A stretch of 32,000 bases of DNA from Staphylothermus hellenicus DSM 12710. GTDB taxonomy: Archaea; Thermoproteota; Thermoprotei_A; Sulfolobales; Desulfurococcaceae. The DNA lies in assembly GCF_000092465.1 (NCBI RefSeq), contig NC_014205.1:240001-272000 (forward strand). The letters are read 5' to 3'. A program made the translations under genes and the position numbers. How positions within the stretch are numbered: the stretch's first letter is position 1; the number at the start of each line of letters is the position of its first letter. Of this stretch, positions 19,865 through 30,468 are shown piece after piece. Below the pieces are notes generated by a model. It did no database searches, was not told the origin of the DNA, and saw only the letters and a program-made list of their open reading frames with translations.

Positions 19865-21052
19865 ATGAGAAAGCTAATCATATACTTATTAATACTAGCA
19901 ATACTGCTCTATCCAGCTTATACTGGAGCAATAAAAACCAGTATCTCCAGTGTTATAGTAACAGATGCTCTAGGTAGAACAATAGTTTTAAACAAAACAC
20001 CTGAGAAAGTAGTATCATTGGCTCCAAGCATAACTGAAACATTATTCTATCTAGGATTACAAAGATTTATTGTTGGAGTTGATAACATATCATATACCGA
20101 TCCATATTTTGGCATTGAAGAATATGTTAAAAACCATAATATCTCACCAGTCGGAGGATACTGGTGGAGCACAATATCCGTTGAGAAAATACTAGCATTA
20201 AACCCAGATATAGTGTTTGCTGACAAAGGAGCACACCAACCCTTACTAAACGTGCTAGAACAATATAATATCACAGTAGTATATCTCAACGGAGGCTCAG
20301 CTAAATCCATACAAGATATATATTCTGATTTAGACATTATCGCACAAGTATTCAATGTATCAAGTAATAAAATATCAGAGTTCATAAATGATCTCGAAAC
20401 AGAAATCAATAAGTATCATAACTTAATCGCTGAGAAAGGAACAATTAAGGCATTGGCTGTAGTAGGAATTTATAATGGAATATGGGTTGCAGGTAAATCA
20501 ACATATATAGATGACCTATTAAGTAGGCTAGGACTAATCAATGCTGCAGAAACAATTGGTTGGAAAGCTGTCAATATCGAAACCATTGCGGAATGGAATC
20601 CAGACATAATACTGGTTACAAGTACTGGGATCGATAATCAAACTCTTAGAAACGCTGGATTATACGATCTAGGCGTTCCAGTAGTATTGCTTAATCAAAC
20701 AATAACCGATGCACTGAGCAGACCGAGTCCCTTAATAATTAATGTGCCAAGAATGATCTATAGTATTATAGATGAATATTTTGGAAGCAAAACAGTGACA
20801 ACTACAACCACTACTACAACTACTACAACAATCACCACCACGACAACAATGACGACTACTACAACAACCACTACTATGGCCACAACCAGTATAGAATCAA
20901 CAACTACAAATTCACCAAGCAATTCCATACATACCGCTACTGAGAAAGAGGTAGAGAAAGGAACAGATTATATAATGATAACTATACTCGTTGTCTCAGC
21001 GTTTATTATAGGCTTACTACTAGGTTATGCATTGTTCAGAAAAACAAGGTGA
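19865..21052 (+). CDS. ABC transporter substrate-binding protein (Fe3+-siderophore/cobalamin type) with Thr-rich stalk and C-terminal membrane anchor
   Basis: Signal/TM N-terminus. VVSLAPSITETLFYLG and DIVF motifs of Peripla_BP_2. A poly-Thr linker is followed by a hydrophobic C-terminal helix plus RKTR. Confidence 0.8.
   Translation: MRKLIIYLLILAILLYPAYTGAIKTSISSVIVTDALGRTIVLNKTPEKVVSLAPSITETLFYLGLQRFIVGVDNISYTDPYFGIEEYVKNHNISPVGGYWWSTISVEKILALNPDIVFADKGAHQPLLNVLEQYNITVVYLNGGSAKSIQDIYSDLDIIAQVFNVSSNKISEFINDLETEINKYHNLIAEKGTIKALAVVGIYNGIWVAGKSTYIDDLLSRLGLINAAETIGWKAVNIETIAEWNPDIILVTSTGIDNQTLRNAGLYDLGVPVVLLNQTITDALSRPSPLIINVPRMIYSIIDEYFGSKTVTTTTTTTTTTTITTTTTMTTTTTTTTMATTSIESTTTNSPSNSIHTATEKEVEKGTDYIMITILVVSAFIIGLLLGYALFRKTR
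20798..20889 (+). repeat. poly-threonine coding low-complexity tract (ACN codon run)
   Basis: TTTTTTTTTTTITTTTTMTTTTTTTTMATT is encoded by mixed ACA/ACT/ACC/ACG codons. Confidence 0.9.
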
Positions 21053-23986: not shown

Positions 23987-24937
23987 TCATGTTTTTCTAC
24001 GGGGAACAATGAATTTCTTCCCATTATACTCTGCTATCATTGTTTTCCCAGTCTTCAATAGTTTATCTAGTATTTCCTCGAAGTTGGCGCCTCTCTTATC
24101 AGCTATGTATTTTAAATAGTCAAGTCTTATTGGGTGAACATTTATTGTTCTTAAAACCTCTTCTACAAGGTTTTCTGAGAATTTGAATAGGGGTTGCTCA
24201 GGATAATTTAGCACTTCTACTCTGTTCTCTCCAAGTTTTTCAGCGAAAATATTGTATGCGATCAAGAAATCATCCTTGTCGGGTATAGTAACGAATTTTT
24301 CTGCTGGAGGCCTTATGGGTGCTTGAATATATGCTTTATCAAATCTTATATTTGAGAGATAATCCGCTATTCCCTCGTATTCTTCGATACTGGTATTCAT
24401 GTTTTTGACAAGCATTGTTTCAGTTATTAATTTTCCACGGTATTTCTTCGAGAAATTAATTATTCCCTCGAGAATTTTTTCAAGCGATAGCTCGGGATGG
24501 GGTCTGTTAAGTTTTCTCCAAGTCTCCTCGTTTACAGTATCTACTTTTACAGAGACTATATCAAATAATAATAGGTCTTCGACAACGTCTTCCCTATATA
24601 TTAGAGAAGCATTTGTAAATATTGCTAATGGAACACTTATCCTCTCCTTGATCAACCTAGCTTCTAATCCAAGGTTTTTATCAAGTGTGGGTTCACCATT
24701 TGGAACAAAAGATACCACATCAGGCTTCTTCTCCTCAACCTCTCTAATAACAGCTTCAACAAGCTTGTAGGGGTCATAAAAACTTATCCTATCAATAATA
24801 AGCCTAGTTGTCCTTCCAGCCTGGCAATATACACAGCTATAACTACAATACTTGTTATAAACATTATTTACACCCAAACTCAAACCAAGCCTCCTAGAAG
24901 GAACAGGTCCAAAAACAATACTATCCATAGCCACCAC
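23987..24937 (-). CDS. radical SAM protein (FGPVPSRRLG-type, function unknown)
   Basis: CSYSCVYCQAG CxxxCxxC motif about 30 aa from the N-terminus. 316 aa. Confidence 0.75.
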   Translation of the reverse strand: MVAMDSIVFGPVPSRRLGLSLGVNNVYNKYCSYSCVYCQAGRTTRLIIDRISFYDPYKLVEAVIREVEEKKPDVVSFVPNGEPTLDKNLGLEARLIKERISVPLAIFTNASLIYREDVVEDLLLFDIVSVKVDTVNEETWRKLNRPHPELSLEKILEGIINFSKKYRGKLITETMLVKNMNTSIEEYEGIADYLSNIRFDKAYIQAPIRPPAEKFVTIPDKDDFLIAYNIFAEKLGENRVEVLNYPEQPLFKFSENLVEEVLRTINVHPIRLDYLKYIADKRGANFEEILDKLLKTGKTMIAEYNGKKFIVPRRKT

Positions 24938-25391
24938 TACATCACCAATACCAATCCATAGATTTACTTAACATAACAAACATAAACCAAAATAATCATT
25001 TCCAAAACCAGATCAACACTAGATAAGATAAGAAATAGAGATTTGAAAACTTATAATTTAGAAATCACCACCTTAGAACCCTGGTTTTGTCAATGAATGT
25101 ATAGGCCACTCTAGTTGTTCATGATAAATCTCTCCAATCCCCTTCAATGAATAAGAACAATAGATAGCTCATCATACCAAAAACAACCCTTTTAATACCA
25201 GAAAGAAATATTAACCCGATAAAAACGTTCAATCCGATGATAACTATTTATAAAAGGATCTTATCATAACATTCTAGGAAAGATTATTATTTCGCCGTTA
25301 TACCTAATTATTTATGCTGAGAATTTAAAGCCCCTTTATAAACCATAATTAATATGCATAGTTAATATAATTGTTTAAACAGAAGATAAAA

Positions 25392-26079: not shown

Positions 26080-26331
26080 ATGAGCGATTTAATAACCGTT
26101 AGAGTTCCCCGCGAAATTAAGGAGAAGATGAGGAAATACCGCAATATTAACTGGAGCGAAGTTGTGAGAAAAGCCATTCTAGAGAGATTAGCAATTGAAG
26201 AGGCTAGGGAAAAGAAATTGATGGCTTCTAAAGTTATGGATAGTATTAGGGAAAAAATTCTTAGAACACATGGTCCAACAAATTATGATTCATCAGAGGC
26301 GATTAGGTATTGGAGAGAGTTAAGAAAATAG
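26080..26331 (+). CDS. vapB: VapB-type antitoxin (ribbon-helix-helix/CopG-like)
   Basis: N-terminal MSDLITVRVPREIKEKM (RHH beta-strand). 83 aa. A PIN-domain reading frame follows immediately and overlaps it. Confidence 0.8.
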   Translation: MSDLITVRVPREIKEKMRKYRNINWSEVVRKAILERLAIEEAREKKLMASKVMDSIREKILRTHGPTNYDSSEAIRYWRELRK

Positions 26332-26497
26332 TTGTTGATGCCAGTGTTGCTGTAAAATGGTTTGTGCCTGAAAAGAACTATGAAAAAGCGTTGTGATCCG
26401 TGATAAATATATTAATGGAGAGTTAGAAATCTACGCACCAAACCTATTAATCTATGAAGTTGCAAATGCTTTAAAACTTCGTAGAACCTATAAACTT
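26310..26497 (+). pseudogene. vapC: vapC (PIN-domain toxin) 5' stump: frameshifted and truncated
   Basis: MERVKKIVVDASVAVKWFVPEKNYEKAL* (first PIN Asp) continues in another frame from 26393 as IRDKYINGELEIYAPNLLIYEVANALKLRRTYKL (PIN Glu). The PIN-like sequence ends at 26497, where IS-derived sequence starts. Confidence 0.75.
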
Positions 26498-26729
26498 ACC
26501 GTTTGTCCCTACCGTATCATTCTATATTTATGTATCTTCGGTGAGGACTTCCACCTCTCCCATAGTCTTTTCTCGAAGGCTATGGGGTCATGGGCGGCTG
26601 TCGAGGCCAACGGCACGGGCCTCCCATCTACGGTGATCCCTAGGGGTTTTGGAGCATTGCTCCCATCAACCCCTAGAGCATAAACCAACACAAGAAAACA
26701 TAATCCAAAAAACTTAAAGCTTACTGCCC
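26498..26729 (-). mobile_element. tnpB-less mini-derivative (MITE/PATE-like) of the neighbouring IS: an LE stub fused to the terminal 179 bp
   Basis: 26498-26676 is the reverse complement of 30158-30336 (10 mismatches, no indels by eye). 26685-26729 aligns with 28808-28870 upstream of tnpB. The junction lies at a CTAGGG microhomology. Confidence 0.7.
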
Positions 26730-27916: not shown

Positions 27917-28863
27917 TTACCTTTTCCTTCAAGCTCTACTACATACTATTTATAATTATTTATCTTATATAGCTAATCATTATACAGAATTGTTCGAATA
28001 CTTGGACAATAGTAATCATAATTTTGTGTTACAGCAGAGCATGTAGATGGAGGTGTTTGGTTTGTTTTAGCAATTACATGATCTGTTGGTCTCTATCTTT
28101 AAACAGTACATAGTTAATTCATTATTTCTTAATATCTGGTATGGTATTGTAATTAATGGAGCCCATTTTCTTGGCATGGCTGCCTAGTGCTCATGCCTAC
28201 ATAGTCTCTACCAAGCTTGTAGGTTTATTTCCAGCATGATCTATTCCCCGATCCATATATATTCGATTATGGAAAGTAGTGATGGGAAGCTTTGAGGACA
28301 ATCCATGGATCATTAGCTAGGTATTAGCTCAGGGTATGTATCGTGAGTAGCGATAACAGGCATGGCCTCTAATAACGGTTCCATAATAAATTCATTTCAA
28401 AATATTTAGCCATACTTAAGAATTATTAATATAAAAATAATATTGTGTAATGTAAATAATAATATAATAGTTTTATAGCTCGGCGGTCTCTCTAGTATGG
28501 AAGTGTGTAAGGAGAAGTCTCTTCTACAAGATCCATTCTCAGGATTAGTGGTTGGAGAATAAGTTTTGAATAGCAAATTGTATTTCAAGGAGATCAGGGT
28601 ACAGGTAACTACTACCCGGTGTTAATAATGACTATATACATTGTTTCCGAAGTAGCGGAGAGGAGTTCTATGACATGGATAAGAACATGTTCTACAAAAT
28701 AGTCGATGAAGCTGTAGAATCTAGTGTTTCGAAGATAAGTTGCTTGAGGGGAGTGAAACCCATAGTACACCCAGATATTATTGATTCCCCATTCTACGCC
28801 AATTGAAGGGGCATAAAACTTTAAGTATTTCAGATCGTATCTTTCTGTATCGGATGATGTTTT

Positions 28864-29046
28864 GTGTTGGATAGGTTGTTGCCTCCTAGGGAGGCTTGTC
28901 GTAGGCTTGGTATTAGTTTTATCACTTTGAAGAGATGAATTTATTCTGGTAAGATACGTGCTGTCAAGACACCTACTGGTAGGTGGATGATCCCTGAGAG
29001 TGAAGTGGAGAGAATCATTAGTGGGGGCGAGGGGACAGACGGTTAG
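28864..29046 (+). pseudogene. MerR/excisionase-type HTH ORF (IS607 TnpA N-terminal-domain-like) with an in-frame TGA
   Basis: VLDRLLPPREACRRLGISFITLKR*IYSGKIRAVKTPTGRWMIPESEVERIISGGEGTDG*. The TGA at 28936-38 sits where the conserved Trp of the TL(R/K)RW motif is expected. No serine-recombinase catalytic domain follows. Confidence 0.6.
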
Positions 29047-30325
29047 AGTTGCTAGGACGGTTGTGGTTGAATCTGCTCGGATTCCTAGGAAGTTGTTCAA
29101 GGTTTTTGTTGAAGTTGAGGGTATGTATCGTAACATGGTTGAGCAACTAACAATATATGCTGTTAGAAACACTATCACCAGTTTTACAAGGCTTAAAGCA
29201 CTAAAATACCGTGAACTCAGAAGGCTCTACCCCAAACTACCATCACATTATGCATATACTGCGTGCCAAGACTCATCAACAAGAGCTAAGAGCTTCATAC
29301 GCTTGAAGAAGCTTGGACAGATAGATAGTGATTATCCTAGAGTTGAGAAGGTATCAATATGGCTTGACGACCACTTGTGGAGACTGGAGGGATACACATC
29401 TATTAAGATAGCAACTCATAAAGGCTGGATAAGGATCGAATTTGAGCCACACAAGCAGTACTGGAAGTACATCAATGGTGGATGGAAGCCCGCATCAGAG
29501 GCAAAAATAAAACTTGATAAACGAAACAAGAAGATCAAAATATATCTAGTACTAATCAAAGATATTGAACCCTACAAGCCTAGGGGATACATCCCGGTAG
29601 ACGTTAACGAGGACAATATAGCAATACTAGTTGATGATAAACCAGTCCTGCTTGAAACAAATATGAAGAAGATCACTCTGGGATACTATTATCGGAGGAA
29701 GAGGGTTCAGGAAAAATACGATAAAATCTACGGTGTAAAATCTAGAGTTAAGAAGAAAATATTAAGGAAACTTAGAGAGAAGAAAAAGAAGCATAGTATT
29801 AGGTGGAAGACAGCAAACATTATTGTAAGGGAAGCTGTTAGGAGAGGTTATGGGATAGCTCTTGAACAACTAGGTAGAAGATCAGCAAACAATATGATTA
29901 AGAAGGTAAGGGATAGACAGCTGCGGCACAGAATATATCAGGCATCATTCAAGAGCATACAGAACGCTATAGCTGAGAAGGCACGAGAGTATGGGGTTCC
30001 AGTGATATATGTCGATCCAAGGAATACTTCAAGACAATGCCCAATACACAGGGCACCAATATTATACGATAACGGGTCTAGGATTGGAAAATGCAGTATC
30101 GGTGGAGAATTCTGGCACAGAGACGTAGTCGCATGCTATAATATTCTCTCCCGCACCCTAGGGGTTGATGGGAGCTATGCTCCAAAACCCCTAGGGATCA
30201 CCGTAGATGGGAGGCCCGTGCCGTTGGCCTCGACAGCCGCCCATGACCCTATAGTCCTTGATAGAGGACTATGGGAGAGGTGGAAGTCCCCACCGAAGAT
30301 ACATAAATATAGAATGACACGGTAG
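29000..30325 (+). CDS. tnpB: TnpB (IS605 OrfB-type RNA-guided nuclease family)
   Basis: RuvC-like motifs YIPVDVNEDNIAI (D), GIALEQLG (E), and WHRDVVACYNI (D), plus a TSRQC...C zinc-finger region. 441 aa by the tracked start; a GTG at 29021 is an alternative start. Confidence 0.9.
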   Translation: MKWRESLVGARGQTVRVARTVVVESARIPRKLFKVFVEVEGMYRNMVEQLTIYAVRNTITSFTRLKALKYRELRRLYPKLPSHYAYTACQDSSTRAKSFIRLKKLGQIDSDYPRVEKVSIWLDDHLWRLEGYTSIKIATHKGWIRIEFEPHKQYWKYINGGWKPASEAKIKLDKRNKKIKIYLVLIKDIEPYKPRGYIPVDVNEDNIAILVDDKPVLLETNMKKITLGYYYRRKRVQEKYDKIYGVKSRVKKKILRKLREKKKKHSIRWKTANIIVREAVRRGYGIALEQLGRRSANNMIKKVRDRQLRHRIYQASFKSIQNAIAEKAREYGVPVIYVDPRNTSRQCPIHRAPILYDNGSRIGKCSIGGEFWHRDVVACYNILSRTLGVDGSYAPKPLGITVDGRPVPLASTAAHDPIVLDRGLWERWKSPPKIHKYRMTR

Positions 30326-30336
30326 GGACAAACGGT
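30158..30336 (+). ncRNA. presumed omegaRNA/right-end RNA scaffold region of the tnpB element
   Basis: This is exactly the block retained in the tnpB-less mini-copy. It overlaps the tnpB 3' end and runs to the element terminus. It contains several hairpins: GGAGC-TAT-GCTCC, the 30248-30275 stem, and GGTGG...CCACC. Confidence 0.5.
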
Positions 30337-30338
30337 TA

Positions 30339-30446
30339 GCTAAATCTATGGATTCATTGTTTGTAACGTGTGATAAGAAACTATATGATAGTCTTGTAGG
30401 AGAAAATGATATTAGAATAACGTTGCTGGATGATCTGATAATATAA
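30339..30446 (+). pseudogene. vapC: vapC (PIN-domain toxin) 3' stump
   Basis: AKSMDSLFVTCDKKLYDSLVGENDIRITLLDDLII* matches the PIN C-terminal pattern (..lvT.D.kl, last acidic residue). It starts 2-3 nt after the IS right end. Confidence 0.65.
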
Positions 30447-30468
30447 TTTGTATTCTGTAACAAATTAT

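Follow-up and report, generated by a model that had tools for sequence, protein, structure and literature searches.

The window, the 32,000-nucleotide stretch of Staphylothermus hellenicus DNA that was analysed, carries two copies of one transposon right end in opposite orientations. The shorter copy, referred to here as the mini, is a tnpB-less element of 231 bp on the minus strand (26499-26729). The longer copy, referred to as the full copy, is 1.53 kb in length and contains tnpB. The features of the locus are as follows.

26314..26498, plus strand: N-terminal fragment of vapC (PIN), about 60 codons (Pfam PIN E 8.7e-5, repaired translation)
26479..26498, minus strand: predicted guide of the mini ωRNA, TAAGTTTATAGGTTCTACGA, antisense to the N-terminal fragment of vapC
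26499..26676, minus strand: ωRNA scaffold and right end of the mini, complete, 94% identical to 30158-30335
26677..26729, minus strand: left-end stub of the mini, 53 bp, homologous to 28808-28891
26711..26718, minus strand: TATA-box-like TTTAAGTT in the mini, with purine-rich GCAGTAAG just before it (from the family left-end alignment)
28809..28884, plus strand: left end of the full copy with the degenerated start of tnpA (canonical left-end HMM E 1.2e-10, best in the window)
28870..29046, plus strand: tnpA remnant, HTH_17 only, with an in-frame stop (Pfam HTH_17 E 1.4e-8)
29021..30325, plus strand: tnpB, apparently intact, 434 aa as annotated (441-codon ORF 29000-30325)
30158..30335, plus strand: ωRNA scaffold and right end of the full copy, overlapping tnpB codons 386-441 (the last 56 codons)
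30336..30355, plus strand: predicted guide of the full copy, TTAGCTAAATCTATGGATTC, which follows the conserved GG and lies inside the vapC C-terminal fragment
30337-30450: C-terminal fragment of vapC, 37 codons, translated as LAKSMDSLFVTCDKKLYDSLVGENDIRITLLDDLII and a stop, with …FVTCDKKLYDSLVGENDIRITLLDDLII and a stop, adjoining the full-copy right end

The family to which both copies belong was characterised using relatives at 80 metagenomic loci (TnpB 62-68% amino-acid identity). Comparison by blastn with 26 related loci places the boundaries of the element where DNA homology starts, at 28807/8, and where it ends, at 30335-30345. In most related loci the left end lies approximately 680 nt from tnpB, versus 229 nt in the window. 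The extra DNA in the related loci codes for a protein of 212 aa that combines an HTH_17 domain with a Resolvase domain (an intact TnpA in locus L005), and tblastn detects both the HTH and the resolvase segments upstream of TnpB in about 80 related loci. NCBI names the relatives of this TnpA as IS607 family transposases. The canonical element of approximately 2.0 kb reads GG followed by GCAGAAAC, the TTTAAATA box, tnpA, tnpB, and ...GTGGAAGTCC-N33-47-TAGGGACAAACGG. On these sequence comparisons the parent family is IS607-type, with a serine-recombinase TnpA that has an N-terminal HTH, followed by TnpB. An assignment to IS200/IS605 was rejected because the associated transposase is a serine recombinase. 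TnpA is the more conserved of the two proteins, with identities of 80-90% at the amino-acid level in the best 120 of 2816 relatives, which include Archaeoglobus profundus and Asgard MAGs, versus 62-69% for TnpB.

The full copy of the window departs from the canonical element. Its left end is clear, with GG at 28809-28810, GCATAAAAC from 28811, and a TATA-like CTTTAAGTAT. Of tnpA, tblastn finds the HTH in the window but not the resolvase segment, and there is no TnpA gene in the window. Judged by its gene content, the full copy is thus itself non-autonomous, because the resolvase domain of its tnpA has been deleted. A sequence-only reading that preceded this work had described an HTH ORF within a full element; the ORF is present, but it is an N-terminal remnant of tnpA that lacks the resolvase, and the element is therefore not full. 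The same HTH-only state of tnpA is seen in a few related loci (L031, L116, and L104). No Staphylothermus TnpA occurs among the best 120 of 2816 TnpA relatives.

The tnpB gene of the full copy encodes a protein 100% identical to P0001, annotated in S. hellenicus as 'IS605 OrfB family', with the Pfam Cas12f1-like TNB domain. All columns that are invariant across 22 family members are kept in it, including D201, E289, and D375 in the motifs VDVNE, ALEQLG, and HRD, which we take to be its RuvC residues. Solved TnpB structures gave no significant match to this protein, the best PDB hits having E values of 0.002-0.005. With every family-invariant residue retained, the proposal that an apparently intact tnpB lies 2.3 kb from the mini holds. 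A second S. hellenicus TnpB, P0077, is encoded outside the window; it is 86% identical and 337 aa long, and it stops short of the zinc-finger and RuvC-III region, so that the ωRNA-overlapping stretch of tnpB is missing from its gene.

The ends of the element are not inverted repeats. Instead, a direct motif lies beside the core GG at each end, GCAGAAAC on the left and GGGACAAAC on the right, and the left GG-GCAGAAAC and right GGGACAAAC-GG arrangement (e.g., 28811-28819 and 30325-30333) is a candidate TnpA-binding site. A GG core is found at both junctions: the right end reads ACAAACGG in nearly all copies, and the left GG is present in most full copies. Inspection by eye of both flanks in 47 minis and 51 full copies showed no target-site duplication beyond the GG.

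The mini is composed of two parts, both of which are homologous to the full copy. The right part ends in ...GGGACAAACGG, with the terminal GG at 26500-26499, and is followed by unique flanking sequence. Together with a few flanking bases it forms an inverted repeat of 182 nt with the full copy (26495-26676, minus strand, versus 30158-30339, plus strand; 94% identity). In the window, a family HMM based on 116 related copies has exactly two scaffold matches, with E values of approximately 1e-44 each (nhmmer, 1.5e-44 for the mini and 2.7e-44 for the full copy). The right part had been described as the last 179 bp of the element; the homology is confirmed at 94% identity, but the end falls at 30335/26499, one base short of 30336/26498. 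The sequence of the mini and its new flank, AAGTTTATAGGTTCTACG, had been read correctly. The only ORF in the mini is a 60-codon tnpB tail, and tblastn detects only residues 379-441 of TnpB. Thus, the mini is bounded by transposon ends and has neither an effector gene nor a transposase gene.

The left part of the mini begins with GG followed by GCAGTAAG, with the GG at 26729-26728 and GCAG at 26727-26724, in agreement with the GG-GC(A/T)G terminus of 47 other minis and with the family left-end consensus. Beyond this terminus, the stub corresponds to the sequence that separates the left end from the tnpA start, which has been deleted. Its similarity to 28808-28891 is significant, in line with the alignment to 28808-28870 proposed earlier: an essentially ungapped alignment was matched by 1 of 2000 shuffles, and a gapped alignment that extends into CCTAGGG was matched by 0 of 2000. 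A canonical left-end HMM, built from other organisms with no window sequence included, ranks the mini left part (26731-26690) second in the window and in the right position and orientation, albeit weakly (E 0.27). The description of the mini as a left-end stub joined to an ωRNA-encoding end is therefore upheld by the homology of both parts, and the same design is found in 64 copies elsewhere. The mini in the window is the only one known in S. hellenicus, a count that covers the window. An exact 36-mer common to both window copies had no match in the searched genome contigs, and the Logan contigs of SRR3925463/2 break off within the right end.

The motif CCTAGGG is present both in tnpA, where it falls in the conserved codons for PPRE, and in the 5' arm of helix 1 of the scaffold, as the sequence-only reading had stated, but at 28885-28891 and 30157-30163 rather than from 28884 and 30156. 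A microhomology-mediated deletion at CCTAGGG is a plausible origin of the mini. The gapped alignment is compatible with it; an equally significant collinear alignment ends approximately 25 nt earlier. The left parts of the mini and the full copy are about 70-86% identical, depending on the alignment, and the right parts 94%. Given that the left parts are far more diverged than the right, the event cannot be reconstructed with confidence. Different junctions occur in minis from other genomes.

The retained right part coincides with an RNA structure. The alignment used to establish this comprised the terminal 200 nt of 116 non-redundant copies, of which 58 have tnpB and 58 do not. From it, RNAalifold predicts six helices with 40 pairs in total that span from CCTAGGGG (30158) to the right end, and 26 of these pairs show compensatory double changes. 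Standard pairs occupy 94.8% of cells, versus 35-45% when the partners are slid by 1-3 columns, and none of 500 column shuffles reached any of the observed pairing measures. In the minis alone, 92.4% of cells are paired and 23 pairs are compensatory. A frame without stops over 50 codons or more is present in 52% of minis versus 100% of full copies. Pairing has thus been kept in the minis while the frame has been lost, indicating that the constraint acts on RNA and not on the protein tail. The S. hellenicus mini forms 37 of the 40 consensus pairs and the full copy 38 of the 40, and the mini RNA folds into the same helices with a minimum free energy of -75.5 kcal/mol (z -3.26). In each of the 116 aligned copies, conservation ends directly behind the terminal GG, at the point where an ωRNA guide would be expected to start, and the flanks beyond it are unique. 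The 5' limit of the block retained in the mini is the first helix. No Rfam family matches the scaffold. The retained 178 bp is one conserved, covarying RNA structure, and its coincidence with the retained block supports the view that what survives in the mini is the guide-RNA scaffold.

The TTTAAGTT box of the mini corresponds to the TTTAAATA box of canonical left ends, which is the tnpA promoter box. The best TATA-like match in the mini is at -43, with the first scaffold stem following approximately 43 nt downstream, and agrees at 6 of 8 positions. We infer that this box is a promoter. By inspection, helix 1 is preceded in all minis by an A/T-rich, TATA-like box at a distance of 20-55 nt. The strict TTTAWATA consensus shows no enrichment upstream of minis, and a relaxed TATA-like motif is weakly enriched there, by approximately 3-fold.

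For the guides, a length of 20 nt was assumed from published TnpB systems. A similarity of 11 of 15 positions between the guide flanks of the two window copies was judged to be due to chance. Likewise, the full-copy guide matches 24952-24971 on the minus strand at 17 of 20 positions (14 of 16 for a 16-mer), which is probably also chance (p about 0.1 by rough estimate). That site lies just upstream of a radical SAM gene (23987-24937) and is preceded by ATG, which is not G-rich, and the mismatches to the guide fall in the TAM-proximal seed.

The surroundings of both copies consist in part of broken genes. The vapC fragment next to the mini is frameshifted near 26390 and stops at the mini right end, and the mini left end lies within the last three codons of a gene for a 400-aa membrane protein. 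An orthologous empty site was sought by way of this 400-aa neighbour, the closest relatives of which are 38-41% identical; they therefore offer no ancestral state for comparison. The earlier suggestion that the mini reads out into vapC antisense is right as to orientation, but vapC is a frameshifted and truncated pseudogene, which leaves the read-out with no evident target and no obvious regulatory meaning. Hence the proposal that the transcript is a cis-antisense regulator of a vapBC toxin-antitoxin locus, into whose vapC and vapB it would run antisense, is most improbable: the truncation at about codon 60 leaves no toxin, and minis elsewhere adjoin unrelated sequences.

At the other copy, a radical-SAM-like N-terminal fragment (…KIVDEAVESSVSKISCLRGVKPIVHPDI…; 28600-28806), assigned by eye, ends at the full-copy left end. 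The two vapC pieces face outward from a 3.8-kb block that is bounded by inverted right ends. Fused at the GG, the two pieces share one reading frame, with approximately 35-40 codons of a normal PIN domain missing. A composite insertion into one vapC gene would thus be in frame but would lack those 35-40 codons. Inversion, replicative intramolecular transposition, and homologous recombination between copies were rejected, none of them yielding two right-end/vapC junctions from one target, and no standard model of transposition or of recombination accounts for the arrangement. Elsewhere in the window, 20785-20907 holds 9-nt-periodic repeats of the ACTACTACAAC type (direct-repeat family D1), presumably a Thr-rich low-complexity coding sequence.

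We searched for minis in other organisms with the pattern GTGGAAGTCC-N30-50-TAGGGACAAAC, which covers the last ~60 nt of the right end, in one genome per archaeal and bacterial species. The probe is independent of upstream sequence and requires exact motif matches. It returned 115 loci with 122 motif hits, nearly all of them in Desulfurococcales and other Thermoproteota. The 122 hits were classified as follows.

64 hits: complete scaffold, no tnpB
31 hits: full copies
6 hits: 5'-truncated tnpB
7 hits: fragments or probable chance hits
14 hits: cut by a contig end

The ratio of minis to full copies is inflated, as short-read MAGs under-assemble 2-kb repeats. The minis elsewhere are 220-318 bp in length and have a GG-GC(A/T)G left terminus, with the GG present in 46 of 47 unique copies. 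In these 47 minis, the left GG is preceded by G 24 times, by T 15 times, and by A 6 times. Their flanks are all different on both sides, indicating that they are independent insertions. A 63-nt canonical left-end model retrieved 6 of about 80 mini left ends with nhmmer, and the GC(A/T)G terminus and inspection of the flanks were used instead. The minis belong to several lineages that differ in their left-end bodies and deletion junctions. All of the junctions lie at or upstream of stem 1; in some minis helix 1 is still preceded by as much as ~50 nt of coding sequence from tnpB, and others, including that of the window, are joined at helix 1. The MAG KUA_Bin18 (JAGDWD01, Desulfurococcales) has at least 15 minis of approximately 300 bp (GGGGCTGTTCTGTTTTTGATT…; loci L087, L090, L098, L112-L114, L120, L121, L138, L146, L147, L160, and others) versus one full element with the exact motif. 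Two covarying versions of helix 3, GGGAGCCC/GGGCTC and GTGTCCCG/CGGGAC, occur among these KUA_Bin18 minis. From these motif and alignment comparisons, the mini design of a left end and a complete scaffold turns out to be common and structurally conserved in hyperthermophilic archaea.

Taken together, these observations suggest that the mini is probably a protein-less, non-autonomous IS607 derivative that serves as a trans-dependent ωRNA module driven by the left-end promoter. An internal deletion would have brought the left terminus and the promoter region of tnpA into direct contact with the scaffold start. The left-end promoter would then transcribe the scaffold from a start some 10-15 nt before helix 1, and the transcript would continue through approximately 20 nt of flanking sequence (TAAGTTTATAGGTTCTACGA) in antisense to the dead vapC. 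The TnpB encoded 2.3 kb away, which has a 94% identical scaffold of its own, would take up the mini RNA in trans. After excision of the mini, TnpB with the mini RNA would cut the vacant site, where xGG lies beside the guide match, and recombination would restore the mini, which would constitute a homing role. The read-out into the flank, the loading into TnpB, and the cleavage are modelled on the homing mechanism that experiments established for an IS607-family TnpB (PMC10690162). Movement of the mini would need TnpA in trans. Several points count against activity of the S. hellenicus copy: position -3 of its left junction is A (G or T in 39 of the 47 minis), three consensus pairs are unpaired versus two in the full copy, and its flanks are scrambled gene fragments. 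Given the A at -3, the empty site of this mini may be a poor TAM.

An alternative explanation, which we regard as unlikely, is that the mini is an inert fossil: a young, one-off internal deletion of a now immobile element, with no functional RNA and no role. The absence of TnpA from the window and the loss of the resolvase from the full copy would fit this, as would the patchwork of gene fragments at the locus (the vapC halves and the radical-SAM-like fragment), the atypical -3 base at the left junction, and the lack of any other retrieved Staphylothermus copy. The ORF of the mini is also still intact, which fits youth rather than selection. Against a fossil, the promoter-bearing left end with a complete scaffold, and never a shortened one, recurs in 64 copies elsewhere. 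Those minis keep their pairing by compensatory change after the frame has decayed, which argues for selection on the minis as a class, and in the S. hellenicus mini itself 37 of 40 pairs are intact.

Still less likely is that the ~180 bp has been kept for TnpA synapsis on a long right end, such that minis are ordinary non-autonomous transposons to which the RNA is irrelevant. IS607 ends do bear multiple TnpA-binding motifs (PMC6188088), both ends of this family share GCAGAAAC or GGGACAAAC beside the GG, and the unique flanks of the minis imply that they have been mobilised. Binding sites in double-stranded DNA, however, predict no compensatory changes in four separate helices across 180 nt, and they provide no reason for a 5' retention limit at the first helix. 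For the last ~40 bp, TnpA binding and an RNA role are compatible and not mutually exclusive.

A trans-dependent ωRNA module of this kind has precedents. Stand-alone mobilised ωRNAs of OMEGA systems act in trans, according to the summary of Altae-Tran et al. 2021 in PMC10691335, and the PATEs of the IS200/IS605 family often encode ωRNAs (Meers et al., PMC10055086). Like these, the mini is bounded by transposon ends, has lost its genes, has kept the scaffold, and has in each copy a predicted guide from the flank of that copy, and a compatible effector gene is present in the same genome (tnpB, 2.3 kb away). Unlike them, its parent is IS607-type, with a serine recombinase, a GG core, and no subterminal hairpins, and it is archaeal and hyperthermophilic. 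The left-end tnpA promoter region of the mini is, moreover, fused directly to the scaffold, and its activity in trans is predicted. Classification as a PATE in the strict sense (IS200/IS605, Y1 HUH TnpA, subterminal hairpins) was rejected, given that the associated transposase is a serine recombinase. Stand-alone mobilised ωRNAs are thus already known, and the mini is their IS607-type archaeal counterpart. We found no description of an archaeal IS607-type class of minis in the searched literature.

The closest parallel to the parent family is the CboIStron, an IS607 element of Clostridium in which GG serves as the core for TnpAS and the donor joint is cleaved by TnpB-ωRNA (Zedaveinyte et al., PMC10690162). 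The CboIStron has a TGGG TAM and a scaffold ending in ...CGG (PMC10690162). The archaeal family likewise has a serine-recombinase TnpA together with TnpB, a GG at both junctions, a scaffold that ends in ...CGG, and a G-rich motif upstream of the left end (G/T-G-G, compared with TGGG in Cbo). By analogy, the expected role of the archaeal TnpB would be cleavage of the empty donor joint. In contrast to the CboIStron, the archaeal element has no group I intron, its TnpB is only distantly related, and neither gene is present in the mini. A laboratory analogue of the natural mini is the engineered 'mini-IS' described in PMC10690162. Among named insertion sequences the closest is ISDka1 of Desulfurococcus amylolyticus 1221n (orfB = P0112), the OrfB of which is 66% identical over 94% of the window TnpB. 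Unlike the window mini, ISDka1 is full-length and comes from a different species, and the comparison was made by OrfB.

The mini also resembles archaeal MITEs (Sulfolobus SM1-4 and SMN1), which are short, non-autonomous derivatives of insertion sequences that are mobilised in trans. The defining features of a classical MITE are its terminal inverted repeats and a target-site duplication. The mini has neither of these; its designation as a strict MITE was rejected, and it is MITE-like only in a loose sense. Guide-RNA content is not known to form part of the descriptions of archaeal MITEs.

What is new here is class-level evidence for selection on a promoter together with a complete scaffold. 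The S. hellenicus mini provides a natural case of a predicted trans-acting ωRNA for an archaeal, thermostable IS607-type TnpB, at a locus where a single nuclease gene is accompanied, within 4 kb, by two scaffolds that have different guides. The scaffold model of approximately 180 nt, absent from Rfam, describes a minimal ωRNA for this clade of TnpB, and the G/T-G-G junction motif is a candidate TAM for it. That the promoter and the whole scaffold are preserved after loss of the genes supports a part for RNA-guided homing, beyond transposase binding, in transposon survival. More tentatively, and with rather more doubt than belief on our part, the archaeal IS607 minis may be a selected, 'guide-only' class of parasites that hijack TnpB for their retention and TnpA for their movement, that outnumber their parents, and that form a dispersed library of guides for one nuclease. 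If this is true, recurrent deletions would fuse the transposase promoter to an intact ωRNA scaffold, and the minis would represent a natural intermediate stage on the way from transposons with one guide to arrays with several.
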